Assembly: GCA_026386805.1 (NCBI GenBank)
Contig: JAPLMX010000171.1
Span: 8,176 to 72,175, forward strand
Source: Phycisphaerae bacterium
GTDB lineage: Bacteria; Planctomycetota; Phycisphaerae; Sedimentisphaerales; Anaerobacaceae
Direction: 5' to 3'
Length of the DNA: 64,000 nucleotides
The notes below the pieces were generated by a model. That model saw only the letters and a program-made list of their open reading frames with translations, was not told the DNA's origin and searched no databases. Position numbers and translations under genes: made by a program. Shown here piece after piece: positions 3,448 to 55,895 of this stretch. Each line of letters opens with the position of its first letter. Position 1 is the first letter of the stretch.

Positions 3448-4320
3448 TCACTTGGCCCGCTTCTTCGGTGTCCTCTGCGTGGAGACCTTGCGTTGAGCCT
3501 TGGCCGTGGACTTGGGGCTGGCGGTCCCTTCGCTGCGTACAGAGCGGCGCTTGGTCCGAAGGCTTTCTTTCTCCACCGCTACAGCGGGCTCCATCTCGAT
3601 GCCGAACACATCCCCCAGGTCGGCGTCGTCGATCACGCGGGAGGTCTTCTTCTTCGCCTGTTTCAACAGCTTTTCGGATTTTTCGCGAACGGCCTGGGTG
3701 ATGAGGTCGTCCATCTTCACCTTGCGAAGAACGAAGAACAGGCTCGGGTCTTCATCCAGCCGCGTCCCGATGCCATAAAGGACGGCGGCGACATGCTTAC
3801 ACATGTAGGCCCAGTCGGGACAACTGCACTTGAATTCGATCTCCTTCGGGGAAGGAAACAGCCCGCTGTCTTTGGCCGTGAACAGCTCCATCAGGCCCTG
3901 GGGGAACCGCCCCGCCAGCAGTTCCTGCAAAGACGCAAGCTGGCCCGCGCAGGCGGCCTTGATCTGTTTCCAGACCGGCTCGCTGACAGGCTTGATCTTG
4001 ATGGCGACTGTGTACGGGCTTCCTTGTCTGCCTTGCACCAGAGCTTTGACTTGACCAGGACTGATCTGCAAGTCCAGGACGGCCCCGTGCCGCACGTAGC
4101 TGCGTCCGCGTCCGACCCGGTTGGCGTAGTCGGCATACTTGCCAAGATTGCCGTTCCACGCCTTGCCCCACCACGTGCGGACGAGGGTATTGCCTTCAAT
4201 GACAACCGGGCGAATGCCCGGGTGCTTCTTTCTTAATTGTTCGAGCTTGCGCCACGCCCGGGCCCGTTTCTCGGCCACGGACACGTAGGGCGGATAGCCA
4301 TAGTTATTGTAGTACGCCAT
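3448..4320 (-). CDS. SWIM zinc-finger protein (partner of the upstream SNF2 helicase)
   Basis: 290-aa ORF with the SWIM signature CSCPDWAYMCKHVAAVLY and a lysine-rich C-terminal tail. Its start lies 10 nt downstream of the SNF2 stop on the same strand. Confidence 0.85.
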   Translation of the reverse strand: MAYYNNYGYPPYVSVAEKRARAWRKLEQLRKKHPGIRPVVIEGNTLVRTWWGKAWNGNLGKYADYANRVGRGRSYVRHGAVLDLQISPGQVKALVQGRQGSPYTVAIKIKPVSEPVWKQIKAACAGQLASLQELLAGRFPQGLMELFTAKDSGLFPSPKEIEFKCSCPDWAYMCKHVAAVLYGIGTRLDEDPSLFFVLRKVKMDDLITQAVREKSEKLLKQAKKKTSRVIDDADLGDVFGIEMEPAVAVEKESLRTKRRSVRSEGTASPKSTAKAQRKVSTQRTPKKRAK

Positions 4321-4330
4321 AGGGTCTCCT

Positions 4331-7051
4331 CTATAAAGACAGCGTGAACAGCCTCACTAACTCCTTGTCGTCCATTTCCGTAATCCATGCCTCGCCGGAG
4401 TCCGGGATGATCTGCCGCGAAAGCTCGGCTTTCTCCGCCAGCATCGTGTCGATCTTCTCTTCTACCGTCCCCTTGGTGACGAACTTGTGGACCACCACAT
4501 TCTTGCGTTGCCCGATGCGAAAGGCCCGATCCGTCGCCTGATCCTCGACGGCGGGGTTCCACCAGCGGTCGAAGTGCACCACGTGATTCGCCGCCGTCAG
4601 ATTCAGTCCCACACCGCCCGCTTTCAGCGACAGGACCAGGAAAGGTGTGTATTCGTCGCTCTGGAACCGCTCGATCATCTGCCGGCGTTTTGCCACCGGT
4701 GTGCCGCCGTGCAGGACAAGGCCCTCATGACCAAAAATGGCATCGAGGAATCCCTTCAGAGGCCCCGTCATCTCCTTGAACTGCGTGAAGACAAGCATCT
4801 TCTCTCTCTTTTCGAAGATCGTCTCGCAGATCGGCCGAAGCCGCTGGAATTTACCGCTGTCGAGCTCGGCGAACCCGCCCTGACCCAGGTACTGGTCCGG
4901 GTGATTGCACAACTGCTTGAACTTCATCAGCGAAGCGAGAATCAGGCCCTTTCTGCGAATGCCGTCCGGCTGTTCCTCCAACACCTGCCGAAGCTGCTTG
5001 ACCAAGTCCTCATACAGAACGACCTGCCGGCGGCTGAGCTCCGCATAGGTCTTCATCTCGATCTTCTCGGGCAGGTCGGAGATGACGGTCTTATCCGTCT
5101 TGAGTCTGCGCAGGATGTACGGACCCACCACCTTCTTCAGCCGGGCGTAGCCGCTCGAGTCGCGCTTGAGCTTTCTGCTGAACCCGCCGAACTCCTCGAC
5201 GGTGCCCAGCAGCCCCGGATTGAGGAAATCGAACAGCGACCACAGATCGGAAAGGCGATTCTCGATCGGCGTGCCCGTCATGATGATCCGGTTCTTGGCG
5301 TGCAGCTTCTTGACCGCCCGGGTCTGCTGGGTCCCGGGGTTTTTGATCGCCTGCGCCTCATCCAACACGACCAGGTCCCACTGAGCGTTCTGGAGCCAGG
5401 CGTATTTCTGACACAGGCCGTAGGTGGTTATCACCAGATCGACGTCATCCAGTGCGGGGCCGCGCCGTAGCGTGTCCTTGTCGGCTCCGCCGGATGGATG
5501 AGCTATGAAGTATCTCAATGACGGCAGGAAACGCTCGATCTCGTTGGTCCAGTTACCAATCAGTGAGGCCGGCAGGATCAGCAGGCTGGTCTTCGGCCCT
5601 TGCCTCGATTTCTCCGCCGTCCGGACACTGAGCATGGCCAGCAGTTCCACCGTCTTTCCCAGGCCCATGTCGTCGGCCAACAACGCTCCGAACCGTAGGC
5701 CATCCAGAAAGCACAGCCAGTCCACGCCCTGGCGCTGGTAGGGCCGCAGCGTCGCCTTGAACCGACTGGGCACTCGAACCGAGTCAATACGCTGCGGCTC
5801 GCGAAGCCGAGCAATTACAGATTCAAGCCATTGCCCCTGGGAGACCTCCACCTCGACGTCTTCCTCGGACAAGCCCAAGGCCCTGTCGGCGTCCAACTGT
5901 AGCCGCATAGCCTCACGCAGGGTCAAATCCTCCTCGGCCATCAATGTCTGCGCCTTCTCATAGGCCCGCAGGGTCTGTTCGAGCTTCTCGCGGTCCACCT
6001 CCACCCATTTGCCCTTGATGAAAGCCAAGCCCTCCGATTCGTCCAGCAGCCTCCGGGCCTCCTCTTCGGAGATGGGCGCATCGCCCAGCAGCAACCCGGC
6101 ATGGAAATCGAGAATCGCGTCCATCCCCAGCGAGCTGGGCCGGGCCTCGCCCATCTGGATATTCAGGCGAAGCCCCGCCGCTCGATTCTTCCACCAGTTG
6201 GGGATGCGGCACAGGATGCCGGCCCGCTCATAGATCGGGATCTCCTTCAGGACCGTGCACGCCTCGCCGGCCGAGAGGGCCAACGGATGGAAGATCTCGC
6301 CGCTATCCATGACTCCGGAGAGAAACTGGCTCTCGGCCGCCGCCTGGTGGACGGTGGCAAGCAGATCGAGCAGCTTCTTGCTGTCGGCGCCGTATTCGGT
6401 CAGGGCGTGCTTCAGTGGCACGTGCTTGCAGCCGCCCTTTGGGTCCAGGCCGGTGGAGTAAGTGGCGAGAAAGGCGAACGGATACTCATCTTTCTTGCTC
6501 TCAACGAGATGAAAGAAGACCCGGCCAACAAGGTGCACCTTTGGACTCAAGGTACGGACAAAGTCGGCAACCGATCCTTCATACGAGTTGACCTGCCGCT
6601 GGTACGTGGCATTGAGCTTGGACCACAGATCATCAAGCAAACCGCGGTCCAGATATTCGGACCCGGGCATGAAGGGCGCGCTGTCGAGCATCGCGCCGGC
6701 TTCGGCATCGGTGAGAGCGACCGTTGCCTTATGCCTCAGGACCTCCAGATCGGGCGTCCTGACCAACTCCTCGGCGAACCGCCCCGTCACCTTTCTCCAG
6801 TAATCCAGCGAGACCGATAGCGGCACCGACGGATCGGAGAAACCCAGCAGCAGCAGGAACGACTCATAGTCCCCTCCCATCCGCTTCCACAACTCGTCCT
6901 GGAGCAGTCTCTGATCCCGGCCAATCGAGTCGTCGACAGAACTCCATTCGAGCTCTATACGCCCATTAGGCAATACCGTGGCGTTCAACTCATTGAACAA
7001 GGTTCCAGATGTCTGGTCGAACACGGGAAATTCCCTGAACACGGATCGCAA
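4331..7051 (-). CDS. SNF2-family DEAD/DEAH-box helicase with N-terminal SNF2-associated domain
   Basis: 906-aa ORF with LADDMGLGKT (motif I), VVLDEAQAIKN (motif II), IIMTGTPIENRLSDLWSLFDF (motif III) and helicase-C motifs LVLSLKAGGVGLNLTAANHVVHFDRWWNPAVEDQATDRAFRIGQ. Confidence 0.92.
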   Translation of the reverse strand: MRSVFREFPVFDQTSGTLFNELNATVLPNGRIELEWSSVDDSIGRDQRLLQDELWKRMGGDYESFLLLLGFSDPSVPLSVSLDYWRKVTGRFAEELVRTPDLEVLRHKATVALTDAEAGAMLDSAPFMPGSEYLDRGLLDDLWSKLNATYQRQVNSYEGSVADFVRTLSPKVHLVGRVFFHLVESKKDEYPFAFLATYSTGLDPKGGCKHVPLKHALTEYGADSKKLLDLLATVHQAAAESQFLSGVMDSGEIFHPLALSAGEACTVLKEIPIYERAGILCRIPNWWKNRAAGLRLNIQMGEARPSSLGMDAILDFHAGLLLGDAPISEEEARRLLDESEGLAFIKGKWVEVDREKLEQTLRAYEKAQTLMAEEDLTLREAMRLQLDADRALGLSEEDVEVEVSQGQWLESVIARLREPQRIDSVRVPSRFKATLRPYQRQGVDWLCFLDGLRFGALLADDMGLGKTVELLAMLSVRTAEKSRQGPKTSLLILPASLIGNWTNEIERFLPSLRYFIAHPSGGADKDTLRRGPALDDVDLVITTYGLCQKYAWLQNAQWDLVVLDEAQAIKNPGTQQTRAVKKLHAKNRIIMTGTPIENRLSDLWSLFDFLNPGLLGTVEEFGGFSRKLKRDSSGYARLKKVVGPYILRRLKTDKTVISDLPEKIEMKTYAELSRRQVVLYEDLVKQLRQVLEEQPDGIRRKGLILASLMKFKQLCNHPDQYLGQGGFAELDSGKFQRLRPICETIFEKREKMLVFTQFKEMTGPLKGFLDAIFGHEGLVLHGGTPVAKRRQMIERFQSDEYTPFLVLSLKAGGVGLNLTAANHVVHFDRWWNPAVEDQATDRAFRIGQRKNVVVHKFVTKGTVEEKIDTMLAEKAELSRQIIPDSGEAWITEMDDKELVRLFTLSL

Positions 7052-42918: not shown

Positions 42919-44181
42919 TTAGGTTGCCGTCGCCACGGGTGCGGGCGACTCTTGTGTCACGACGGCCATAGTGTCACGTCCCTCCCGCCCACGGGAGAGC
43001 AGCCTGCTCGTGATGGACGCAAGCTCTTCGAGTTCCTCGTTGTTCAGGCCCGTCAGCTCGACGGCGATCGACAGGGGTCCGGCCGCCACCGCGTGAAAAT
43101 CGCGTTGGGACGACCCCTCCCATACTCGGTCGATCGCGTCCGGGATTGCCACCCCGCGCTCGACGTCCCGGCCGTGCTTGACTCGCCCCACCGCCGCCAC
43201 GGTATGCGCCCCGGCCAGCGCAGCGTCGGTTCCCTCCGCCAGCCGAAACACCACTAAGATTTGGTCGTCCACCTGCACCTGCAACGTCGTCTCGATCTTT
43301 AGCCCCAGGCCCGCCAATTCCGTCACCGTGCTCTCCACGAACACGGGCGCTTCCCCGCCGGCCGAATCGGTTCGCAGGAAGGGCAGGTGGGCCAGCAACG
43401 CCGGCGCGTGCACCGCCACGCGCTCAAACCGCCGACGATCGACGAAGTGCACCTCGCCGCTATGAGTGAGAACCAGTGTCTGGCCGGCACAGCTCACCGT
43501 CGAGGTGCAAAACTCCCACCCGAATATGCCCGCACAGTAGCGTGCGAGCCAGGAGTCGCCGGCGTTGCTGTGCAGCGGCGCCGGCAGCGCAACGGCCATC
43601 TCGATTTCGTCATTCCGGAGCACCGCGGCGCGAATGGTGACCGCCCGGCCCGCGCTGCGACCCGTCAGCTCCAGAGCCGCGCCGACGGGGATTTCCCGGC
43701 TGCTTGCTTGCTCCGGCGCGGGGCCGCCCCGGCCCGCCGACGCCTTGTCAAAGCCCAGCTTCAGTCGAACGCGTGCCATCTCCGTTTTCAGATCCTCGAT
43801 CTCTTGCGAGGTGCGGGCCTGCACACACTCCGCCAGCAACTGGGTCATCCCGCGATTCAGCGAGTCGATGTCGTGGAAGACCTCGTAGGTGTGCTGCAGA
43901 CCGCTGCGCATGGCAATCGCCAGAAGAATCTGGCGCTCGCGGACACTGAGGCCCCGCCGCGCGGCGCTGTCGGCGAACGTCTCCGGCTTCTGCGCCTTGC
44001 TCTTGCCCTGCTGGTGCCGCCGATAGCTGATCGCAATCAGCAGCGAGAACAGCACCAGCATCACGACGACGCCGACCAGCACGAACCAGTGATAAGACGC
44101 CGCGCGAGGCTCGAGCCGGCGGGTGGCTCCCCACCGCTCGATCGCCGTCAGGCCCAACACGATGTGCGCTACGCCGTCCAT
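42919..44181 (-). CDS. Membrane-anchored YcgR-like PilZ-domain protein
   Basis: 420 aa. TM WFVLVGVVVMLVLFSLLIAISY, then a PilZN-like region, then VDRRRFERVAV (RxxxR motif) and a weak second motif STVTELAGLGLKI. Confidence 0.65.
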   Translation of the reverse strand: MDGVAHIVLGLTAIERWGATRRLEPRAASYHWFVLVGVVVMLVLFSLLIAISYRRHQQGKSKAQKPETFADSAARRGLSVRERQILLAIAMRSGLQHTYEVFHDIDSLNRGMTQLLAECVQARTSQEIEDLKTEMARVRLKLGFDKASAGRGGPAPEQASSREIPVGAALELTGRSAGRAVTIRAAVLRNDEIEMAVALPAPLHSNAGDSWLARYCAGIFGWEFCTSTVSCAGQTLVLTHSGEVHFVDRRRFERVAVHAPALLAHLPFLRTDSAGGEAPVFVESTVTELAGLGLKIETTLQVQVDDQILVVFRLAEGTDAALAGAHTVAAVGRVKHGRDVERGVAIPDAIDRVWEGSSQRDFHAVAAGPLSIAVELTGLNNEELEELASITSRLLSRGREGRDTMAVVTQESPAPVATAT

Positions 44182-44220
44182 GCCGTGGTCTGCACAGACG
44201 CAAAGATTGCGTCTCTACTC

Positions 44221-45906
44221 CTAACGAATGAGGTTCGTCAACTCGGTTAGAATCTCCGTGGCCACCCGGATGGTGCGGGCGTTTGCCTGGTACCCGTTCT
44301 GCGCCTGGATCATATTGACGAATTCGGTCGCCACGTCCGCGTTCGACTTCTCCAGAGCGCTGCCGTGAATCACGCCGGCACCGGTGCTCCCCGCTTGGGT
44401 CGCCACCGCCGAGCCGGAGTTGGCCGAGGCCAGGTAGTATCCGCCGCCGGCGCTCTGCAAGGCGGCCGGGTTGTTGAACAGAGAAATCTGCAGCGTCGCC
44501 AAGTCCTTCTTGACGCCATTCGTGAAGGCACCGACCAGCGTGCCGTCACTGCCTACCGACACCGCGGACAAGTTGCCCGATTCGTAGCCGTTCTGCTCGC
44601 GCGCCACGGCCGTGGAGTTGCCCGCAAATTGGGTCAGGCCGCCGAACGAGCCGATGGTCCCGAAGTCCAGAGAGAGGGTCTGCGAATGGGCGACGTCGTG
44701 ACTGAACGTGACGACGAACTCGCCCGCCTCGGTATCGGGAATCCCCGTGAAGGCCCCACTGAGCGGATCGAACGACAGCCCATTGACGCGGCGATTCGCC
44801 GGGTCGATGGTCTGAACGTCCCCCGTGATGGACGTCAAAATGACGTCCCAGGTGTTGACCGTGTCGGTCCGCACCATCGTGGCAGACAGAACGTGCTTGC
44901 CGCCCTGCGAATCATACACGGCGATGTTCGCGTTCTTGGATTCCGCGCCGCCGACCGTGGTCATTTCAAAATACGACGGGGTCGTGAGCGTACCGGCGCC
45001 CGAGTAGGAAAGCGCGATATCGGACTTGCTGTAGCCAGTCGCATCATCCGTGATGCGAATCTGGCCGTTCACGAGGGAGGCCGTCGCGTTGCTCAACACG
45101 TTGTTGTTCAGGTGGTCGATCAGGTCGTTGACGGTCGTGGCCGCCGTCACCGCGAAGGTCAGGCCGGTGCCCAGCGCGGTGCCGTCTTGTTGAAAGCCCG
45201 AGATGGAGATGGTGCCCGTCTGGCCGGCGCCCAGCTCGCCGCCCGCCCCGGAACCGCCGGTGAACTGGTCGAGCTGATCGATCTGGGCCGTCCCCAGGGC
45301 TTCCGAGCCATCCACCGTGTAGGCCAAGTTCGATGTCAGCACCTGCGTGTTCGGGGTCCCGGCCGCGTCGGAGCTGAGGTTGCCCGTGAGCGTGACCGTG
45401 GAGGTCGCCTTCGCGGGTAGCGCGGTGCCGTAGGGGATCTGGATATTGCTGTCCCCCGGCAGTTGGAAGCCGTCGCTTTCCCCCGTCAGACCGATGCGCT
45501 GGACACGGTAGCCGGTGGCGGGGTCCACGAGGTAGCCGGCGGCATCGACCCCGAAAGCCCCCGCACGCGTATACAGCGCGCGGACGCCGTCGTTGACGAC
45601 AAAGTACCCTTCTCCCTCGATGGCCGCGTCCAACGGACGGCCGGTATTGACGATACTGCCCTGGACCATGTCCGGCGCAATGCTCGCCGCCTTGACGCCG
45701 GTGCCCACCTGCTGGGGGTTCGTGCCGCCGACGCGGTCCGTCGGCTGCGACGCCTGCCCGATCGTCTGGCTCAACAGCTCCGCAAAACCGACGCGGCTGG
45801 CTTTGAACGCCGTCGTGTTCACATTCGCCAAGTTGTTACCGGCCACATCCAGCATCTCCTGATGCGCCTGCAGCCCCGTTACGCCTGAAGACAACGCATA
45901 CGACAT
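44221..45906 (-). CDS. flgE: Flagellar hook protein FlgE
   Basis: 561 aa. SGVTGLQAHQEMLDVAGNNLANVNTTAFKASRVGFAELL, DAAIEGEGYFVV, and C-terminal LEKSNADVATEFVNMIQAQNGYQANARTIRVATEIL. Confidence 0.95.
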   Translation of the reverse strand: MSYALSSGVTGLQAHQEMLDVAGNNLANVNTTAFKASRVGFAELLSQTIGQASQPTDRVGGTNPQQVGTGVKAASIAPDMVQGSIVNTGRPLDAAIEGEGYFVVNDGVRALYTRAGAFGVDAAGYLVDPATGYRVQRIGLTGESDGFQLPGDSNIQIPYGTALPAKATSTVTLTGNLSSDAAGTPNTQVLTSNLAYTVDGSEALGTAQIDQLDQFTGGSGAGGELGAGQTGTISISGFQQDGTALGTGLTFAVTAATTVNDLIDHLNNNVLSNATASLVNGQIRITDDATGYSKSDIALSYSGAGTLTTPSYFEMTTVGGAESKNANIAVYDSQGGKHVLSATMVRTDTVNTWDVILTSITGDVQTIDPANRRVNGLSFDPLSGAFTGIPDTEAGEFVVTFSHDVAHSQTLSLDFGTIGSFGGLTQFAGNSTAVAREQNGYESGNLSAVSVGSDGTLVGAFTNGVKKDLATLQISLFNNPAALQSAGGGYYLASANSGSAVATQAGSTGAGVIHGSALEKSNADVATEFVNMIQAQNGYQANARTIRVATEILTELTNLIR

Positions 45907-45935
45907 TTGTGCCTTCTCCTACTATCGTGAGACCA

Positions 45936-46319
45936 TCAATCTCGAATGGACGCGACATCCGCCAGGTTGACCTGCTGACCGCCGATGGCCAGCAAAGCCG
46001 ACCCATCGTCGGCGATGCTGACTTCCTCCACCTGTCCGGCCTTGGTCTCGGACGTGCCGTCCTCCGCCTGCACCTTGTACGAGACGTTCTTGCCGATCAG
46101 CGAGCTGGCGTAGTTGCGCTGCACCGACTCCAGCACTTTGCCAAACGAGGTGTTGAGGTTCTCCGTCTGCTGCAACTGGGAGAACTGCGCCAGTTGAGCG
46201 GACATGTCCTTGTTGTCCAGCGGTTCCAGGGGATTCTGGTTCTGGAGCTGTGTCACCAGCAGCTTCATGTAATCCATCTGGATGTCACTGGCCGACGCAG
46301 TCGACGTGATCGCAGCCAT
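45936..46319 (-). CDS. flgD: Flagellar hook assembly (capping) protein FlgD
   Basis: 127 aa with DYMKLLVTQLQNQNPLEPLDNKDMSAQLAQFSQLQQ, the FlgD signature. Confidence 0.9.
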   Translation of the reverse strand: MAAITSTASASDIQMDYMKLLVTQLQNQNPLEPLDNKDMSAQLAQFSQLQQTENLNTSFGKVLESVQRNYASSLIGKNVSYKVQAEDGTSETKAGQVEEVSIADDGSALLAIGGQQVNLADVASIRD

Positions 46320-46401
46320 CGGTCTCTATCCTCATGTCAAAACCATGTGTTTCTTCCCGGGCCGCACGTGCAACCCGGATGAACACCCGTGGAAACACAA
46401 T

Positions 46402-46417
46402 AGCAATTGGCGTGCCA
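46402..46417 (-). promoter_or_regulatory. Sigma-54 promoter (-24/-12) for the flgD-flgE... operon
   Basis: The minus strand reads TGGCACGCCAATTGCT. The -12 GC is ~85 nt upstream of the flgD ATG (46319). Confidence 0.8.
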
Positions 46418-46878
46418 CGGGAGCGAAGGACAGAGAAATACCACGACGAGAAACCTCCCAACCCGTGCTAGGGATACTGATTCGGGCGACGGTCGGTCCC
46501 ACCCGCGCCGCCGCGAACCGGCGATGTCGCGACACGGAATCCGGCAGAATCTTCCTTACCCAGAAAAATCTTCCTCCGCCCGTTCGCGCGTCCGGCGCAC
46601 CGGCCGCCGCAGACCGAGCGTCAGGGGCGCGTCCCATAAGAAGCCCGGCCGCTCTTGTGCCCAACGCAGGGATGGAAGACGCGTCGCCCCCTCCTTTTTG
46701 GGACCGTCCCATCAAGGGCATGACCGGGCCGTCCCAGGATCGCCGCCGGATGTCGAGACGCTCTCGCGGCGTCCAATAAAGATTAAAGATGTTGGAAACG
46801 CGCAGTCGATGTGTGCCGTATTCGACGCGACCGTCGGCCGCCGGCCGAGGCGTTGACAACCGGATAGGTTGGGAAGAT

Positions 46879-48321
<1,443 letters not shown>

Positions 48322-48721
48322 CCTCCCCCGGGACGGTCCCGGCAAAAACACAGACGTTCTCCACCTCCCCGTTCTCCAATGCGTCAGAGCCTTCGTGCGT
48401 GCTTGTCGAGCCGCAGAGGGTGTGTCAGAAAATCGGGCGAGCCGTATAGAATCCGGACACGGGGAGATAGGGAATTCCGGGGACACCTTACTTATTTCGG
48501 TCTTGAATTGAGTATGCTGTCCCCAGATATCAGTCACGCGGGCCAAATGCGTTCATGCTGCTGCTGCATTCATTGAACACGTACTCTCTTACTGCTTCTG
48601 TAATCATCCTGAAACCGCTAACAAATGTCGAGGAATGCGGCATCGGCAGCAGACACCACAGTGTAATCCGCACCCGATCTTCTCTCTACCAAGACGCCTT
48701 CCTCGCCGATCTCATTACACT

Positions 48722-48746
48722 CGCGAGACCCGCCGCGGGTCTCGCG
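48722..48746 (-). terminator. GC-rich hairpin downstream of the AAA_13 gene (no U-tract)
   Basis: cgcgagaccc-gccgc-gggtctcgcg, a perfect 10-bp stem ~30 nt after the stop at 48776. Confidence 0.35.
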
Positions 48747-48775
48747 TAGGAGTGCAAGCGATTGTTCGCCCTCGG

Positions 48776-51055
48776 CTATCCCAATACATCCAGCGCCTTC
48801 TGCGCGAATAACCGCACTACCTCTGGGGTCAGCGGAATCATTCCCGGAACATCGTCAGTGGCGTGATGACTTGGCAGCGAGGCATCGTTGATGGACTCCA
48901 AGTTTGGGACTTTCGCCCGCAGCGCATCTAGTCGCGATCCTGAATCACTGTCTCGTATTCTGGCAATCATTTGAGCGAGAGTATCACGAGTCTGAAAAGG
49001 CGGACCAGGAAACAGGTGCCGGAGTCGCTGTTCCAAGTAGGGCCGAATACACGCTGCTGCTAACCTGTGATCGCCGCCGTGTTCAAGAAAGTCGCGAAGC
49101 TTGAGGTAATGCTCCACATACTCCGTCTGCGTTGCGCGATCCACGTCCCATGGCAGCAATCGGCTCCCCCTGTTGGTCCTTTCCACCTGCAAAGGGACGA
49201 TATTCTTCAGCTTCTTGTCCCGCCACATCATTGCAGCCAACCGCTCGTCGTGAGTCAGGACAACAACCTGCGCGCCACGGACCCGCAAGTCACGAACGAC
49301 CCCTTCGATGAGGGTTCTGCGAGAACTTCCGAGGCTGTTCACCGGGTCATCAAGCACTACAACTCGACCAGTCAGATCGCTCTGATCCTTCAATCGTGCG
49401 AAGAAGAATGAGAGCGCGAGCGTGTTCTTGTCCCCCTCGCTGAGAACGGTCTCGAAGCAAGGTTCAGTCTCAGAAAGGCCGAGTTCGAACTCGTATCCGT
49501 GCACCTTGAGTTTGTACTGGACGATGGCTCTCCCACTAGGAAACCCTGACTCAACAGATTCGATTCTTATGTCGCAGCCGAAGTGTTCAAGGTAGTGATT
49601 GATGCCGGCTTGGTACTTGACGACCACCCTGGAAGCGTGTTCATCAATTTCTTTCTTCAGCCCCGTTTTCTCCCCGTCAAGCCTCGTCCGTTTCTCAATG
49701 AGAGCGTTTCTCTTTCCAAGCAGATCCTGCGCTAATGGCTCGAACCGGATCTTCTGGTTCTCAAGACGGCGCAGACGCTGTTCGATCTCCGCCATGTCCG
49801 CCTTCGACAGAGCGGCCTTTCGCTCTTGAGCCTTCTTGCCGCTGGCAGAGAGGATGTCGTTCACCTTGACGAGCATGGCTACCGCAGTCTCATACTCCGC
49901 CAGTGCCTCCTCAGCCAAAGCAGGCTCCATCCTCTCGAGCGGCCTGGCTTGTTTACTTGCGACAACTGCTCCCAACTTCCCCGCGGCAGATTTCCAGACC
50001 GCTTCGGCCTTGGTAAGAGTGGTGGCAATCGCGGACTGATCAATCGGCATTTCGTCCGCCCACTGGGCACCCACAGCGGCCTGAACCGAGAAAGCTGCCC
50101 GCATATGCGGGAAAGCGGCCGTGCCAAGTTGGTCCCGGATTGCCTGAATCTCCAGTGACAATGATTCGGTGTAGGCACGATATTCCGCACTGAAGTAGGA
50201 GCGGATTGTCGCGACGAGACTCGATCCGGCAATATCCTGAGCGCAGAATGGGCATTTGTTATCCGTCCCCGTATGCCTCGCGCCATATGCGAGCCAGTTC
50301 TCGCCGTCGTTGTCCAGATGCTGGTTGATGTGCGCTCGGACTACGGCAGCAATGTCTGCGCCTATGCCGTCAGCGCTCTTCTCCAGGAGTGTGGTAATCG
50401 CATTCCGATCAACCGTGGGCAACGCAACCGCCTTGGGTACCGCTCTTGCGAGAATCGCATCCTTGCTCTGTGCCTGCTTCAGTTCCGCGCGTACCTTGTC
50501 TATGTGCTCGTCAATCTTCGCGTCATTCGAGAGGCCCAGAAACGTCTCAAGGGTGTCGGGCTTCTTGATCAGCAGTTGAAGGTCTTTCTCAATTGCGTTT
50601 TTCTGGGTCAGCGCCTCCCGGCCCTCGTTATCGGCTTGCGTCAGCTTCCTCAATTTCTCAACTGCTGTCCGTCCGAGGACAAACTCGCAGAGATTTCGGC
50701 GATTATCGGGATCTATACCGGTTGCTGCATGAACGTTACGCGTTACGAAACCAGGAAAGAAGACCTCAAGTGTGTTATACGGCAGTTGGTCGTCCCAGTC
50801 TCGGCCATCGAAGGTGTAGAGTTTCCCGTTCATTCTGACGGCCACGGTCGGGGCGACATCCCCAGGAAGGCTTCTGCGCCTGATGATCTCCCGTGCGTTC
50901 CGCTCGCGTAGCGAATCGAGAATGGCGGCAAGCGTGGACTTGCCGACACCGTTCTCCCCGTAGATTAGTGTGACTTCACCGAGGTCGCGGCCGGGCGTAT
51001 GGGAGTAGTCCTCGAACAGTCCAACCTTGTTTACACTTTCAAATCTTTCGAGCAT
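48776..51055 (-). CDS. AAA_13-type ABC ATPase with coiled-coil insert and CPFC motif (RloC/PrrC-like architecture)
   Basis: 759 aa. Walker A LIYGENGVGKSTLAAIL; long coiled-coil-like stretches flanking NKCPFCAQDI; signature-like LSEGDKNTLALSFFFA; Walker B RVVVLDDPVNSL; VVVLTHDE. The ~150-aa C-terminal domain has IRPYLEQRLRHLF and NDASLPSHHATDD. Confidence 0.75.
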   Translation of the reverse strand: MLERFESVNKVGLFEDYSHTPGRDLGEVTLIYGENGVGKSTLAAILDSLRERNAREIIRRRSLPGDVAPTVAVRMNGKLYTFDGRDWDDQLPYNTLEVFFPGFVTRNVHAATGIDPDNRRNLCEFVLGRTAVEKLRKLTQADNEGREALTQKNAIEKDLQLLIKKPDTLETFLGLSNDAKIDEHIDKVRAELKQAQSKDAILARAVPKAVALPTVDRNAITTLLEKSADGIGADIAAVVRAHINQHLDNDGENWLAYGARHTGTDNKCPFCAQDIAGSSLVATIRSYFSAEYRAYTESLSLEIQAIRDQLGTAAFPHMRAAFSVQAAVGAQWADEMPIDQSAIATTLTKAEAVWKSAAGKLGAVVASKQARPLERMEPALAEEALAEYETAVAMLVKVNDILSASGKKAQERKAALSKADMAEIEQRLRRLENQKIRFEPLAQDLLGKRNALIEKRTRLDGEKTGLKKEIDEHASRVVVKYQAGINHYLEHFGCDIRIESVESGFPSGRAIVQYKLKVHGYEFELGLSETEPCFETVLSEGDKNTLALSFFFARLKDQSDLTGRVVVLDDPVNSLGSSRRTLIEGVVRDLRVRGAQVVVLTHDERLAAMMWRDKKLKNIVPLQVERTNRGSRLLPWDVDRATQTEYVEHYLKLRDFLEHGGDHRLAAACIRPYLEQRLRHLFPGPPFQTRDTLAQMIARIRDSDSGSRLDALRAKVPNLESINDASLPSHHATDDVPGMIPLTPEVVRLFAQKALDVLG

Positions 51056-51170
51056 ATGCCCTCTGGACGTTTCTTTCGCCGCACGAAAGGTGTTCTATGG
51101 TCAGGTGCTCCTTTCTCTGGCGAACGTTCGAGTTCAGCGGCTGCCGAAGGCAGTCCGCTGGAACGAATAG

Positions 51171-51818
51171 TTAGCTTTCAGTCCATAGCGGCAGAGCACT
51201 TAGGAGTGTCGTCCCCGATGAGGTGATGTCCGCTGCGCCTGCGCTCAGCGCCTCATTCCGAAGGTTGTGGGCCGCCCATGAACCGCAGAAGATGTAGACA
51301 GGCGTTTTGGGGCTAATCGACTTGATCTTCTGAATGAGGTCGATTCCCGCTTTGTCACCTTCAGGTCGGCCCATGTCCGACAAGATAATGTCGTACGAGA
51401 GCTTCTTGGACTTTGTTAAGGCCTCATCGGTGCTTAGGGCGATGTCAACTCGCGCCCCCCGCTCTTCCAGCGATTCGACCAAGAAGCTATTGTTCTTCGG
51501 GTTGTCGTCGACCCAAAGAATTCGCTTACCGCTTGCCGACGGCACAGTGACAGGAAGTTGCTGTGCAGTAGGGCTGGCGTTCAGGCGCTTTTCAAGCTCA
51601 GCGAGCTTGCTTTGTAGGTCGTTGACGATCACTCGTTGTTGCTCCGATGCTTCCTCCATCGTGAGTTCGTTACCTGCGACCTTGATCGTGAACTTCCTGC
51701 CATGTGCCGATTCCACTAGCGTTCGTATCGGACCGTACAGCTTGTATAGCAATGCGGCGAGTACGAGCGGCCATGCAAGCGAGGCAAGGGCGGATATGAG
51801 CTTGGCTAGAGCGTCCAC
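51171..51818 (-). CDS. Membrane-anchored receiver (REC)-like domain protein
   Basis: 215 aa. TM LISALASLAWPLVLAALLYKLY, a coiled segment, then KRILWVDDNPKNNSFLVESLEERGARVDIALSTDEAL...YDIILSDMGRPEGDKAGIDLIQKIK...PVYIFCGS (CheY-like fold with DD pocket and SDM Asp). Confidence 0.7.
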   Translation of the reverse strand: MDALAKLISALASLAWPLVLAALLYKLYGPIRTLVESAHGRKFTIKVAGNELTMEEASEQQRVIVNDLQSKLAELEKRLNASPTAQQLPVTVPSASGKRILWVDDNPKNNSFLVESLEERGARVDIALSTDEALTKSKKLSYDIILSDMGRPEGDKAGIDLIQKIKSISPKTPVYIFCGSWAAHNLRNEALSAGAADITSSGTTLLSALPLWTES

Positions 51819-51983
51819 AGTGGGTCTCCTGAAAGCTACCAGTAATTAGACTGATCCGCATGACACACCGTGAGAACGGCTGCCAGAGTCGCGCTAATCC
51901 CTTTATCTTCTGTTGGTTGCGCTCTATCCAGTAGTTTATCACGGCATCTTATGCGGATCGGCATAATAACCTCCTCGATTGCC

Positions 51984-52238
51984 TCAAAGCCCCTCAACCG
52001 GACTGCGAACGCCCGGCGGTCCACGGTTGAGGACATGAGTGTAGATCATCGTCGCCTTAACGTCGCTATGACCCAAAAGCTCCTGGACGGTTCGAATGTC
52101 ATAGCCGCCTTCGAGCAAGTGAGTGACAAAGGAATGCCGGAACGTATGGCAAGTGGCGCGCTTCGTCAATCCCGCCTTCGCAACCGCCTGCCTCGCGGGT
52201 GTACTCCTTTGATCGTATGTCTTTGGCACTCCCGACAT
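51984..52238 (-). pseudogene. C-terminal fragment of a tyrosine recombinase, integron-integrase (IntI)-like
   Basis: 84 aa: [57 protein letters not shown] carries the box II H-x-x-R...H...Y catalytic residues and the IntI-type tail. The N-terminal ~240 aa are absent. Confidence 0.8.
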
Positions 52239-52343
52239 CCGGTTCTCCTTCGCTTACAGCGGGGATCATAGCATGGCACGTCGTGCAAATCAAGAGTGTC
52301 GGCAAAAAAAACAATGACCCGCATGAAGGCTAAATGGGGTTTC

Positions 52344-52498
52344 AGCCACAGAGGACACCGAGGTCACAGAGACCAAGAAGGTAAGAAGGTGGGAAACCAA
52401 GAAGGTCGGAAGGTGCCCAGAGAAGAAGGTCGGAACGTCTCGCGTTCTGGCCTTCCCACCTGCGCTCCTCTCTGTGTTCCTCTGTGATCTCTGTGGCT
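52344..52498. repeat. Palindromic element (family H): arms agccacagaggacaccgaggtcacagag / ctctgtgttcctctgtgatctctgtggct around aagaaggt repeats
   Basis: The arms are imperfect reverse complements. The centre contains four aagaaggt(n) words. Confidence 0.75.
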
Positions 52499-52642
52499 TG
52501 CTTCCTTTCTTAGCTTTTGACCGGGCCGTTGAAAAGAAGGCCCGTATCTCGTCGTTTTCCGCGACCAGCATCGCCGCCGGGATCTGGGAGGCCCGACCGC
52601 GGCGTGCGAAGGCACAGGCAGATGAGAATGTCTACTTCATGG

Positions 52643-52812
52643 ACGAGACCGGCGGGCAGAAGACGCAGGCCGCCGCCCTGCTCGGCATTACGTGCGCCAC
52701 CCCCTACGCCAAGGTCAAGCAATACGACATCCGCAAAGAGGGGGCTGCCATGGAGGAAGTACGGCTGGCCGCTCCACAGCCCTCTGAAGCTGTAGGCGCC
52801 GCCGCGTACTGA
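52643..52812 (+). pseudogene. Displaced, decaying 3' fragment of the EBP 1 gene (HTH region)
   Basis: Translates as [53 protein letters not shown]. Compared with the intact copy it has R-to-C and L-to-P changes inside the HTH. No AAA+ domain lies upstream. Confidence 0.8.
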
Positions 52813-52960
52813 CCTCCCCCAGACGGTCCCGGCAAAAACACAGACGTTCTCCACCTCACCGTTCTCCAATGCGCCGAGGCCTTCGTGCGTGCTTGTCGAG
52901 CCTCAGAGGGTGTGTCAGAAAATCGGGCGGGCCGTATAGAATCCTGACACGGGGAGATAG
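52643..52960 (+). repeat. Direct repeat copy B (attR-like)
   Basis: See copy A. The reading frame is preserved as far as the same stop position (52810-52812). Confidence 0.9.
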
Positions 52961-53045: not shown

Positions 53046-55895
53046 ATGGCCGACGAGAGACAACAACCGGATCGCGACAACCAGACGGGACCCCAAACGC
53101 GACCAGTCGCGACTGGGAAGGGCTCCCAAGTGCGGAATTCTGCACTTGGGGACCCGAACCCGGCGCCGCCTGTCACGCCGACGCCGTCCGAAGACGAGAT
53201 CTTTGGGTCTCTCTTCGCGCGGCAGCCGACACTGGATGACATCTTCGCAGGGTCCCCAACGCGATCGTCCGCGTTTAGGAAGCCCGCGTCGCAGATTGAG
53301 TTCCCATCGGAGCCGACCCGCCGCAACGCGAGGCAATTCATACTCGAGGCACTGCGGGGAAAGCAGGTGCGGCTGCATCTGAGCGGAATTCTCAACGCGA
53401 TCCTTCGCGTCTGGAAAACCAGCCCGCTGTCGACCGTCCAGAAGATCCTGGCGGTAAGCATCGTCGTCATCGCCGCCGCCGTCCTCTATGTCCTGCTCTT
53501 TAGGGCCGCTGCTCCGCTGTCTCCGGACCAGACGGCCCTGGTCCAGTCACCTTCTGGGGACCATGCAGCGCCCCAGGGGGCAAGAACGACCGCAACGGCC
53601 GAGACCGTGGAAGGGGACCCCAAACGCGACCCGTCGCGTTTGGGAACCCAAGCGAGCCTCGGAGAGCCCCGGCGCGAGGAATCGCCTCTGGGGGCCCGAG
53701 CGCTTCCCAGCCCCGAGCCGCTTTCTCTGCAGTTGGCCGACAAGCTCTACCTGCACCGGGACTTCGAGCCTGCTCTGGTCATGTACGACAAGCTCTACCG
53801 GCGGCTGCCGTCCACGGAAGAGAACCAGCCGCTGCGAGACTTCCTGCTGCTGCGCATGGCCCTGTGCAGCAGGAACAGCGGCAGCGTCGCCCAAGCCGAC
53901 AGTCTGCTGCGGACCGTGTCCTTGAGCCGGCTGCCGGTCCTGAGGGCCTTGGCACGATATCACCAGAGCACGACGCTGATGAGCCGCAATCGCTACCTCG
54001 AAGCGGCGACCAAGGCCTATCAGACGGCGGCCCTGATCGAGGTGGCCAGTTACGACAAGAAATGGGTGTTGGCCGTGCAGCAGCAGTGTGGCCTTCTGGC
54101 CGCCGAGGCCGTGAGCCGCAACTTGCTGGCGCTGTGTGACGCCGACGCCAATCTGCCCAAAGAACTGTGGAGCGAGCACCCCGACATCGATCCCTTCCTC
54201 GAGATGGATGAGCCGCAGTTGCGGGTCTTCCTGGCCGCGGGCACGGAGCAACTCGAAGGGACCGTGCTGAGCCCGCAGATTCGCCCTACCGGCGACAAGA
54301 GCGAGGTGCCGCGCTGGTCGGTGATCTGCAACGGCGCCCCGATTGAGGAGTTGTTGGCCCGGTTTGCCGCCAACGCCGCCGTGAACATCCGCTGGACCGA
54401 TGGCGACCAGGGGCTCCCCAACGCGAAAGATGGCGTTGGCGGACCCCAGGCCCCCCCGGCAGAGGACAACGTGCGGGCCAGGCCCGTCTATCTTTACTTC
54501 ACTTCGGCCACGACGCCGCAGGTGGCCACAACAGCCGCCGGAAGCGTCGGCTTGATCGCCCAGACCGATGAGAAAGGCGACATCCGTCTGCTCGACCCCA
54601 CGTCGTACACTTCTCTGGCCGACCACACCAAGCTGCTGGCCGATGAGGCGATCACCCTGTGGCAGAGATTTCTGCTGACGGCGGAGAACGATCCGCGCAG
54701 CACGAACGCCCACTTCGCCATGGCGCTGCTCCAGGCCACGCGCGGGCAGTTCGACGAGGCGATTGCCGAATACAAGCTCGTCGCCAACCGCTTCGCCAAG
54801 CACGCGCTGGCCCCCCACGCCCTGCTCCAGTCGGGCATGTTGAAGGTTCGGCTGCGTGACTACGTGGGGGCGCACGCCGACCTCAAGCAGCTCGTGGAGC
54901 TGTACCCCGACACCCCGTTGTCGGATCGAGCGTGCCTGTACTTAGCCGACGCCACGATGAAGGCGGGCTTGTACCAGGAGGCGACCGGGCTGTACCACAA
55001 AGTGTACAATATGGGCCTGTCCGTCGCATCGCAGGCGCAGTCGGCGCTGGGGGCGGGCCGGTGCCTTTATGAGACCAAGGAGTACGAGGAAGCGGCCAAG
55101 TGGCTCAGCCGGTACACCACGCTGGTGCGGGACCAGAGCCGGCCGGAGTTCTCCACCGCCTGCCTGCTGCTCGGCAAGACGTATCTGGCCCTGCACAAAC
55201 CGCAACAGGCCCAGCCGGCACTGAACCTGGCAATCAAGGGCGAGCTGTCTCATCAGCAGCACGTGGAAACCATCGCGGTGCTCGTCAAAGCGTACCTCGA
55301 ACAGGGGCTTTGCCTCGATGCGCTTAACACACTCGAAGCCACCGCCGGATGGCAGTTGTCGCAGCAGGAGGCCGTCGAGCTGGCCCTGCTGCGGGCGCAG
55401 ACGTTTCGCGCCATCGGACTGGCGGACAAGGCCGCGTCGCTGCTGGAGGAGAAGAGCCAATATCTGTCCAGCCCCGAGCTCCAGGCGCAAGTGGCGTTCG
55501 AACTGGCGAAGTGTCACCTGGAGCAAGGTGATCTCGAGTCCGCCCGCAAGACGCTCGGCGAGGCGTTCGCGGCGGTCGAGCCCGGGCCGCTGGCCGATCA
55601 GATCGGCCGCGAATTGGCCGGCGTGTGTCTGCGTCTGGGCCAAACGGAACAGGCGATTTCCGTCTGTTCGCAACTGCTGGAAGGGCTCGCGGTCCCCAAC
55701 GCAGAATCCCGCATTGGGGGGCCCCTTTCCAACGCGAAACCTGGCGCTCGGGGACCCGAGCGTAGCGCCGCCTCCGAGAGACAGACGATCCTGGCCCTGC
55801 TGGCGGATGCCTATCGCAAACAAGGCAAATACAATCAGGCCGTGGCCGCGCTGCTGGACCGCTACGAGGTCCCGGAATTGATTAAGGGTAATTGA
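53046..55895 (+). CDS. Large membrane-anchored TPR-repeat protein (start uncertain: ATG 53046 or GTG 53130)
   Basis: 949 aa. One TM VQKILAVSIVVIAAAVLYVLLF, then many TPR-like units (YKLVANRFAKHALAPHALLQSGM, YHKVYNMGLS, AKWLSRYTTL). Three REP-like palindromes are translated in frame. Confidence 0.7.
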   Translation: MADERQQPDRDNQTGPQTRPVATGKGSQVRNSALGDPNPAPPVTPTPSEDEIFGSLFARQPTLDDIFAGSPTRSSAFRKPASQIEFPSEPTRRNARQFILEALRGKQVRLHLSGILNAILRVWKTSPLSTVQKILAVSIVVIAAAVLYVLLFRAAAPLSPDQTALVQSPSGDHAAPQGARTTATAETVEGDPKRDPSRLGTQASLGEPRREESPLGARALPSPEPLSLQLADKLYLHRDFEPALVMYDKLYRRLPSTEENQPLRDFLLLRMALCSRNSGSVAQADSLLRTVSLSRLPVLRALARYHQSTTLMSRNRYLEAATKAYQTAALIEVASYDKKWVLAVQQQCGLLAAEAVSRNLLALCDADANLPKELWSEHPDIDPFLEMDEPQLRVFLAAGTEQLEGTVLSPQIRPTGDKSEVPRWSVICNGAPIEELLARFAANAAVNIRWTDGDQGLPNAKDGVGGPQAPPAEDNVRARPVYLYFTSATTPQVATTAAGSVGLIAQTDEKGDIRLLDPTSYTSLADHTKLLADEAITLWQRFLLTAENDPRSTNAHFAMALLQATRGQFDEAIAEYKLVANRFAKHALAPHALLQSGMLKVRLRDYVGAHADLKQLVELYPDTPLSDRACLYLADATMKAGLYQEATGLYHKVYNMGLSVASQAQSALGAGRCLYETKEYEEAAKWLSRYTTLVRDQSRPEFSTACLLLGKTYLALHKPQQAQPALNLAIKGELSHQQHVETIAVLVKAYLEQGLCLDALNTLEATAGWQLSQQEAVELALLRAQTFRAIGLADKAASLLEEKSQYLSSPELQAQVAFELAKCHLEQGDLESARKTLGEAFAAVEPGPLADQIGRELAGVCLRLGQTEQAISVCSQLLEGLAVPNAESRIGGPLSNAKPGARGPERSAASERQTILALLADAYRKQGKYNQAVAALLDRYEVPELIKGN

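Follow-up and report, generated by a model that had tools for sequence, protein, structure and literature searches.

A probable decaying integron remnant in a Phycisphaerae genome with two cassettes, one encoding an RloC-family ATPase and the other an orphan receiver protein

Overview of the Island and Its Two Genes

The present analysis concerns two adjacent genes in a 64,000-nucleotide stretch of the genome of Phycisphaerae bacterium (assembly GCA_026386805.1, contig JAPLMX010000171.1, positions 8,176 to 72,175), referred to below as the window. The larger gene (48776-51055, minus strand) encodes a 759-aa ABC ATPase of the RloC family with a putative C-terminal HEPN-like domain; it matches PF13166 (AAA_13; E 5e-35) and the PADLOC model PDLC04895 (E 2e-74). 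The smaller one (51171-51818, minus strand, GTG start) encodes a 215-aa orphan, membrane-anchored and atypical receiver protein (REC), recognised by PF00072 (E 1e-13) and by an AlphaFold model. It is likely, with a probability of roughly 0.8, that the island containing both genes is a decaying integron remnant with two independently captured cassettes, that the genes are not a functional pair and that the RloC-like protein acts alone. An earlier sequence-only reading of this DNA had proposed a candidate undescribed defence module, in which the receiver protein would serve as sensor or regulator of the ATPase.

According to the integron interpretation, the island would be what is left of an integron whose integrase gene, intI, was transcribed towards the cassettes, the integrase being cut to its last ~77 residues. 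The first cassette would carry the gene of the orphan atypical receiver and end in an intact 58-nt attC site. The second one would begin at the G↓TT core of this site (the arrow marks the crossover point) and carry the stand-alone RloC-family gene, followed by an attC with a decayed 3′ half. The RloC-like protein would be a stand-alone latent toxin or defence protein, whose Rad50-like ABC head and zinc-hook coiled coil would sense DNA- or nucleotide-related stress. Sensing would free a predicted HEPN-type RNase (Arg671, Glu675, His731), which would cut tRNA anticodon loops and thereby halt translation.

The sequence-only reading had described two co-oriented genes about 115 nt apart in an island of lower GC content, and this description holds. 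Both open reading frames (ORFs) lie on the minus strand, the spacer separating them (51056-51170) is exactly 115 nt long, and the GC content of the island (48471-52639) is 55.5% against 64-65% in both flanks. Either protein has hundreds of full-length homologues with 55-92% identity, so both ORFs are real genes and not chance ones. The 215-aa protein is 100% identical to an NCBI entry of a Phycisphaerae metagenome-assembled genome (MAG). Both proteins retain 60-90% identity across phyla, which fits the expectation for mobile cassettes: REC homologues occur in Phycisphaerae, Comamonadaceae, Lysobacter, Chitinophaga and Desulfobacterales, and homologues of the ATPase in Methylomirabilia, Elusimicrobia, Acidobacteria and Ignavibacteria. 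Scans of viral contigs gave one remote match (24% identity) for the ATPase and none for REC, indicating no phage association.

attC Sites and Cassette Boundaries

A complete attC site of 58 nt (51119-51176, minus strand) is located between the two genes. It has the cores R″ AGCTAAC and R′ GTTCGCC, and the TAA stop codon of the REC gene lies inside R″. The site forms an imperfect hairpin, the 5′ arm of which has two bulged bases; its AAC/GTT pairing was found by a custom scan. Its DNA fold has an energy of -16.8 kcal/mol (z -3.3), and 0/200 shuffled sequences folded as well. The same hairpin was considered as an intrinsic terminator of the REC gene and rejected, having no T-run and ending in a GTT core where unrelated loci diverge.

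The conserved 5′ leader of the RloC-like cassette (51056-51124, minus strand) has its start at the crossover point G↓TTCGCCAGAGAA, and the ribosome-binding site GAGGG lies in it. The window was compared with six independent metagenome contigs carrying homologues of this gene (L089, L090, L092, L093, L095 and L101; such numbers designate the related loci collected for the analysis). The alignment is near-perfect through the ORF and the 70-nt leader and breaks off exactly at GTTCGCC, upstream of which the six contigs are mutually unrelated. A different attC, of 72 nt, comes before the GTT in L089, and probably one of 80 nt in L092.

At the other end of the RloC-like cassette, a degenerate attC was found (48700-48770, minus strand; R″ GGCGAAC at 48770-48764; fold z -3.7). 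Conservation covers the 5′ arm and a 12-bp GC stem, and the 3′ arm has diverged, the sequence being identical to that of L089 and L081 up to window position 48721 and divergent from there on. A custom attC scan after the ATPase gene returned only an implausible 155-nt site. In homologous loci, the attC of this cassette is complete (GGCGAAC...GTTGGGC and similar). L089, L090, L100 and L106 share an attC GGCGAAC...GTGAC↓GTTRRRY after the ORF, and their flanks differ right past the GTT.

The left boundary of the REC cassette (51834-51862, minus strand) has the mutated core GGTAGCT instead of GTTAGCT; in L006, L013 and L014, the REC cassettes start with ↓GTTAGCT or ↓GTTAACT. In L006, L008, L013, L014, L029, L043 and L083, the REC homologues are followed by an attC built in the same way, and a compensatory change in the inner stem distinguishes the attC of the window from that of L083. 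RNAalifold gave no consensus for six REC-cassette attC sites because MAFFT cannot align such divergent palindromes, and the sites were assessed individually instead. The mutated left core and the decayed attC after the RloC-like gene make the array probably recombination-incompetent now.

Taken together, the genes show the organisation of integron cassettes, in which each ORF has behind it an imperfectly palindromic attC bearing the cores R″ (RYYYAAC) and R′ (GTTRRRY), and a given cassette recurs in different surroundings, similarity breaking off at the G↓TT crossover points. Since a complete attC lies between the genes and each has boundaries of its own, their adjacency is a product of site-specific cassette insertion. 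The REC gene is not exclusively a cassette gene, because most of its genomic homologues have no attC; a recognisable site accompanies only about 10-12 of the 78 genomic copies. Members of the REC family are thus for the most part lone chromosomal genes, some of which have also been captured as cassettes.

In the metagenome loci L083-L088, an 81%-identical REC homologue heads a long co-oriented run of small genes (about 5.4-12.6 kb in L083). Toxin-antitoxin pairs (ParE, PIN/FitA, DUF2442/DUF4160) abound in it, and it includes a DNA methyltransferase gene. This run resembles a cassette array, a clear attC being present at the REC gene only.

Co-Occurrence of the Two Families

A survey of gene neighbourhoods had been set beforehand as the refuting test of the proposed sensor/effector module, and the pairing was absent from all 107 related loci. 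The REC set comprised 80 genome loci from many phyla (homologues with 30-72% identity, flanked by up to 8 kb per side as far as the contig reached) and six metagenome places of the 81%-identical homologue, so that the survey reached about 6-8 kb from the REC gene. A phmmer search with the 759-aa query against all ORFs of these loci found matches at E <= 1e-3 in 0/80 genome and 0/6 metagenome loci. Conversely, a REC homologue was found in 0/21 loci of the ATPase set (AAA_13 homologues with 65-92% identity). Clustering of the neighbouring ORFs revealed no family in more than 14/76 REC loci, antisense ORFs of the gene itself aside, and the few families common to these loci reflect the synteny of related Burkholderiales. 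The closest ATPase homologue (92% identity) stands alone after a different attC. Consequently, a pair of REC and RloC-like proteins does not exist as a conserved system.

The idea of a dedicated two-gene defence module, in which the RloC-like ATPase-nuclease would be under the control of a signal-sensing membrane receiver, is therefore very improbable. In its favour, the genes are co-oriented at a distance of 115 nt with no intrinsic terminator between them and are probably co-transcribed here, and receiver-like N-terminal domains give weak matches to the PADLOC models of Shedu and PDC-M60C. Yet the ATPase is missing from all 86 REC loci and REC from all 21 ATPase loci, the intervening attC and the separate cassette ends mark each gene as a unit of its own, the nearest ATPase relative has no such neighbour, and RloC needs no partner (PMC2610378).

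The Integrase Remnant and the Region Upstream of REC

An 84-codon ORF (51984-52238, minus strand) lies directly upstream of both cassettes in the sense of transcription and is co-oriented with them. Its last ~77 residues match the C-terminus of integron integrases, whose full length is roughly 320-340 aa. The match to the integron integrase model TIGR02249 (E 1.6e-34, profile positions 244-314 of 315) is much stronger than that to XerD (E 2.6e-21), and PF00589 is matched at E 4e-19. The remnant is 65% identical to IntI1 and 81% identical to a Gemmatirosa homologue, and its best plasmid matches carry the annotation of integron integrases. A complete integron comprises a functional intI with the additional domain specific to IntI, an attI site and a Pc promoter; the window contains a remnant and not a functional integron.

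A candidate sigma-70-like promoter (TTGATT-17-TGnTATGAT; 52265-52293, minus strand) points into the intI remnant and the cassettes. It has an extended -10 element, and such matches are no more numerous in the region than chance would give. Read-through of both cassettes could start from this promoter.

The boundary of the REC cassette is directly preceded by the 23-nt motif CATGCGGATCAGTCTAATTACTG (51840-51862, minus strand). A consensus of 23-25 nt, CATGCGGATC[CA][AG]TCTAATTA[TC]T, was found immediately 5′ of cassette boundaries in three independent contexts, namely the window, L083 (5964-5979) and L096 (4958-4973); the cassette behind it is a REC cassette in two cases and an RloC-like one in the third. 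The motif could be the attI of integrons with a co-oriented intI or a shared 3′ arm of attC sites. As a check of the former possibility, the neighbours of the AAA_13 homologue in L096 were compared with Pfam, and no integrase was seen; none was found in the covered parts of L083 and L096, nor with the 84-aa intI fragment as a query in the covered DNA of related loci.

A 107-nt imperfect palindrome (51852-51958, minus strand; DNA fold z -2.2) is situated between the intI remnant and the REC cassette, and the 23-25-nt motif makes up its 3′ arm. It is not a canonical attC, since it has no terminal AAC/GTT cores, and a custom attC scan of the interval from the truncated intI to REC found no acceptable AAC...GTT site.

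The RloC-Like Protein

All motifs quoted in the sequence-only reading are present in the translated ORFs, and the layout that it recognised, that of RloC and PrrC with a split ABC head, a CxxC-bearing coiled coil and a C-terminal Arg-x3-Glu...His domain, is supported. The 759-aa protein contains GENGVGKST at residue 33, CPFC at 268, LSEGDKNTLALSFFFA at 538 and VVVLDDPVNSL at 565, followed in the C-terminal part by IRPYLEQRLRHLF at 670 and SHH at 729. Besides AAA_13, it matches Pfam AAA_21 and SMC_N, as well as Rad50 in the PDB. Among 30 full-length homologues (55-92% identity), the motifs GENGVGKST, LSEGDK, VVVLDDP and T601-H602-D603 are invariant or nearly so, and C268-P-F-C271, lying between the head's N- and C-terminal halves, is invariant. 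The insert bearing CxxC is predicted to be a coiled coil from its amino acid sequence and from the Rad50/SMC-type matches. Many homologues are named 'wobble nucleotide-excising tRNase' by JGI, a name equivalent to RloC/COG4694.

RloC was defined by ABC motifs, a coiled-coil insert with CXXC and the triad Arg-X3-Glu-X36-52-His, the His being often preceded by Ser (Davidov & Kaufmann 2008, PMC2610378). Its tRNase activity is lost on mutation of any triad residue, and it acts without a partner gene (PMC2610378). The domains responsible for nuclease activity in PrrC and RloC have been classed as HEPN, the hallmarks of which are an all-alpha helical bundle and the endoRNase motif Rx4-6H, often accompanied by Ex3[KR] (Anantharaman et al. 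2013, PMC3710099). In the family studied here, R671, E675 and H731 are 100% conserved in 94 representatives with mutual identity below 50%, and Arg679, Asn723 and His730 are conserved in at least 90% of them. The Glu-to-His spacing is 55, or 54 if counted to H730 of the sequence S729-H730-H731. E675-x3-R679 fits the Ex3[KR] motif, and the His-bearing motif reads N723-x6/7-H730/H731 rather than Rx4-6H.

The AlphaFold model of residues 615-759 (pLDDT 81) consists of a short N-terminal beta-hairpin and an all-alpha helical bundle. In the PDB, the best fold match to this model is that of the HEPN domain in sacsin. No Pfam family matched the isolated C-terminal 163 residues at E up to 10, and a word-index homologue search with the C-terminal profile returned nothing but fragments from the same family. 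When 1.84 billion representatives were scanned in full with HMMER, the domain turned up in 770 clusters, nearly all of which are proteins of about 760 aa with the domain at the C-terminus. In nine of ten distant members, the AAA_13 model extends to profile positions 656-709 of 713 (to 611 in the tenth); as the model aligns into the C-terminal domain in these members, the domain is tied to the one modelled for RloC and PrrC. From its sequence, the 759-aa protein is assigned to the RloC family.

The protein already matches PDC-S06, a single-gene candidate system of PADLOC. The match to its model PDLC04895 is significant (E 2.2e-74) and covers residues 1-682 and profile positions 1-708 of 784.

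In L091 and L094, RloC-like homologues with 81-87% identity occur outside a cassette context. They are followed by a gene of an N6/N4 DNA methyltransferase with a DPPF motif (2919-3451 in L091), and in L094 rmuC precedes the homologue (L094 coordinates about 1200-1900 and 4307-4573). This linkage fits the 'restriction-linked' history of rloC.

The Receiver Protein

The description of the upstream protein as a membrane-anchored receiver proved accurate. The 215-aa protein is organised as a transmembrane helix, a conserved RKFTIKVAGNELTMEE segment, a long helix and a REC domain, and contains WVDDNPKNN at residue 102 and SDMGRP at 147. Its N-terminus is hydrophobic, and the Kyte-Doolittle 19-residue mean of 2.05 over residues 7-25 supports the membrane anchor. 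In the AlphaFold model, helix 2-26 is followed by a conserved short beta-hairpin RKFTIKVAGNELTME, a long helix (54-80) and a receiver fold, which superposes on Spo0F, CheY, PhoP and KdpE at 1.7-2.3 Å with a TM-score of about 0.8 relative to the target.

The residues D104, D105, D148, C178 and S201 are invariant across 25 REC homologues. The protein thus has the receiver fold, the acidic pocket (D104/D105) and an Asp at the phospho-acceptor position (D148), and the canonical Thr/Ser and Lys are replaced by the invariant Cys178 and Ser201, placed by the alignment and by the predicted strands 174-177 and 197-199. Clustering of neighbours in 76 loci found no conserved adjacent kinase. The protein is probably not a conventional two-component response regulator.

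The receiver is 60-80% identical across at least ten phyla, sometimes as an integron cassette. That it is a self-sufficient and host-independent unit, such as a single-gene device of stress response, defence or counter-defence, perhaps influencing the RloC-like toxin in trans, is unlikely, though less so than a dedicated module; its trigger could then be small-molecule phosphodonors or membrane events. The sequence-only reading had linked this receiver variant, fused to effectors, to NTPase-based conflict systems. What remains of this association is a set of weak PADLOC matches of the 215-aa protein (SduA of Shedu, PD-T4-6 and PDC-M60C; E 1e-4 to 0.015), and receiver domains have been seen only 'sporadically' among effectors (Kaur et al. 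2020, PMC7159879). These matches and the sporadic receiver effectors do not establish a defence role for the receiver.

Edges of the Island, the Flanking Repeat and Neighbouring Genes

The 4.2-kb island is bracketed by a 322-bp direct repeat with 93% identity between the copies. The left copy (48149-48470) consists of the 3′ end of an intact sigma-54 activator gene and 149 nt downstream of it, and the right copy (52640-52960) contains a displaced fragment of the 3′ end of this gene, the last 57 codons of which are duplicated together with the 149 nt. The repeat is too long for a target-site duplication. It could have originated from a Campbell-type homologous insertion, from att duplication or as a MAG artefact. 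No tRNA or tmRNA gene marks the island, and a Rfam scan of the whole window gave no matches.

The repeat, duplicating the 3′ end of a gene, invites the view of an ordinary integrative island whose own tyrosine recombinase placed it in the 3′ end of the sigma-54 activator gene, with the repeats as attL and attR and an operonic cargo. A recombinase remnant about 400 nt from one of the repeats and a GC content below that of the flanks agree with this view. It is nonetheless unlikely, in about the same measure as a self-sufficient receiver or slightly more so: integron integrase models give the remnant a far better score than those of XerC/D or phage integrases do, both genes have integron-type boundaries (AAC...GTT hairpins and G↓TT crossover points) that recur in unrelated contexts, and 322 bp at 93% identity is atypical of att duplication. 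The two views are compatible in part, as homologous recombination could have moved an already decayed integron.

The third explanation, an assembly artefact in which two strain variants were joined, at least as far as the 322-bp duplication is concerned, draws on the source being a MAG and on the 7% difference between the repeat copies, such as strain variants might show. It has very little probability, comparable to that of the dedicated module. The junction of gene, attC and gene is consistent in itself, independent assemblies agree with each cassette as far as the expected core sites, and such an error would not put an attC precisely between two ORFs.

A low-complexity element (52344-52498) lies in the interval from the truncated intI to the right repeat and is composed of 20-nt inverted repeats (AGCCACAGAGGACACCGAGG / CCTCTGTGATCTCTGTGGCT) and tandem 24-nt units. 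It may be an insertion resembling repetitive extragenic palindromic (REP) sequences or miniature inverted-repeat transposable elements (MITEs) that destroyed the 5′ part of intI.

The activator gene left of the island (46789-48321) is intact and matches Pfam Sigma54_activat and HTH_8; its N-terminal region has no receiver match in Pfam. Flagellar genes are found in the same area (42919-48321), including those of a FlgE-like hook protein (44221-45906) and a FlgD-like protein (45936-46319). To the right of the island, a 33-nt palindromic repeat of REP-like type, GGGACCCCAAACGCGAC..GTCGCG.TTGGGAA, occurs four times at 53078-53649, its copies falling within the first ~200 codons of a 949-aa TPR-like ORF (53046-55895), the true start of which is probably further downstream.

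Weighing of the Evidence

Several observations count against the interpretation of the island as an integron remnant with a stand-alone RloC-like toxin. At the level of the array, the left core of the REC cassette in the window is GGT and not GTT, no recognisable R′ GTT core follows the RloC-like gene, and about 66 of the 78 genomic REC homologues have no attC and resemble ordinary chromosomal genes. Only the last quarter of intI remains, which leaves the IntI-specific insertion out of reach; attI was not identified in the window; and integron biology offers no explanation for the 322-bp flanking repeat. At the level of the protein, the Glu-to-His spacing of 55 is just outside the published range of 36-52. 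The match to a HEPN fold is weak (probability 0.92, Foldseek E 0.4, TM-score about 0.5), and the C-terminal profile found nothing among PDB sequences at E up to 10. Moreover, PDC-S06 is a candidate defence system, and the papers found mention its prediction only.

Significance

Genes that look like defence genes and stand side by side in one orientation within a low-GC island can owe their adjacency to the accident of integron cassette capture. Here, the cassette ends, i.e., the attC sites and G↓TT boundaries, gave the decisive test between a module and chance adjacency. The role of integron cassettes as reservoirs of defence genes is already known (bioRxiv 10.1101/2024.07.02.601719; 10.64898/2026.03.17.712381), and a putative RloC-type ATPase-nuclease in an unusually large cassette of ~2.4 kb now joins the defence-type genes that integrons move between phyla. 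A literature search found no paper linking RloC to integron cassettes; this link may be new, though incremental. Besides, an integron remnant with a co-oriented intI is recorded in a Phycisphaerae genome, and the widespread lone membrane-bound receiver is a small question of its own.

Comparison with Known Systems

The components of the island belong to kinds already known, namely an RloC/AAA_13/PDC-S06 protein and a degenerate integron of known atypical orientation, and they do not constitute a new class of system. The receiver resembles single-domain regulators of the CheY/Spo0F type in its fold, in the acidic pair D104/D105 and in D148. It differs from them by the N-terminal membrane anchor and long helix of the 215-aa protein, by the family-invariant Cys at the Thr/Ser position and Ser at the Lys position, and in having neither a linked histidine kinase nor a conserved neighbour.

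In PrrC, as predicted here, an ABC NTPase is combined with a C-terminal HEPN RNase bearing an Arg-Glu-His triad. However, PrrC has no coiled-coil/zinc-hook insert and is always located inside a type I restriction-modification (R-M) locus, whereas no R-M genes are found here. PDC-S06 is a single-gene candidate and its PDLC04895 is the best model for the 759-aa protein, although roughly the last 80 residues of the protein are outside the match. The resemblance to RloC (COG4694, PF13166, HEPN) extends over the Walker A motif, the signature-like LSEGDK, the Walker B/D-loop VVVLDDP, the H-loop His602, the long helical insert with an invariant CxxC and the C-terminal all-alpha domain with an invariant Arg-x3-Glu...Ser-His-His. 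The similar size (759 aa here), the stand-alone gene and the occasional linkage to DNA methyltransferase or R-M genes among homologues (L091, L094) also agree. The differences are the Glu-to-His spacing, 55 here compared with 36-52 in the original definition, and the AAA_13 model, which stops short of the C-terminal domain here and aligns to it only in more distant relatives. Furthermore, the gene here is carried by a 2.4-kb integron cassette.

The array itself is comparable with Treponema-type integrons, with degenerate ones and with attC clusters that have no integrase. In the integrons of Treponema, intI is transcribed towards attI (PMC3607928). The remnant in the window differs by the truncated integrase, the decay of one attC and one core, the presence of only two cassettes, the lack of a recognisable attI and the 322-bp flanking repeats. 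It shares with these integrons the co-orientation of intI with the cassettes, attC sites with R″/R′ cores, cassettes that recur in other attC contexts, and a cargo that includes a defence-type gene.

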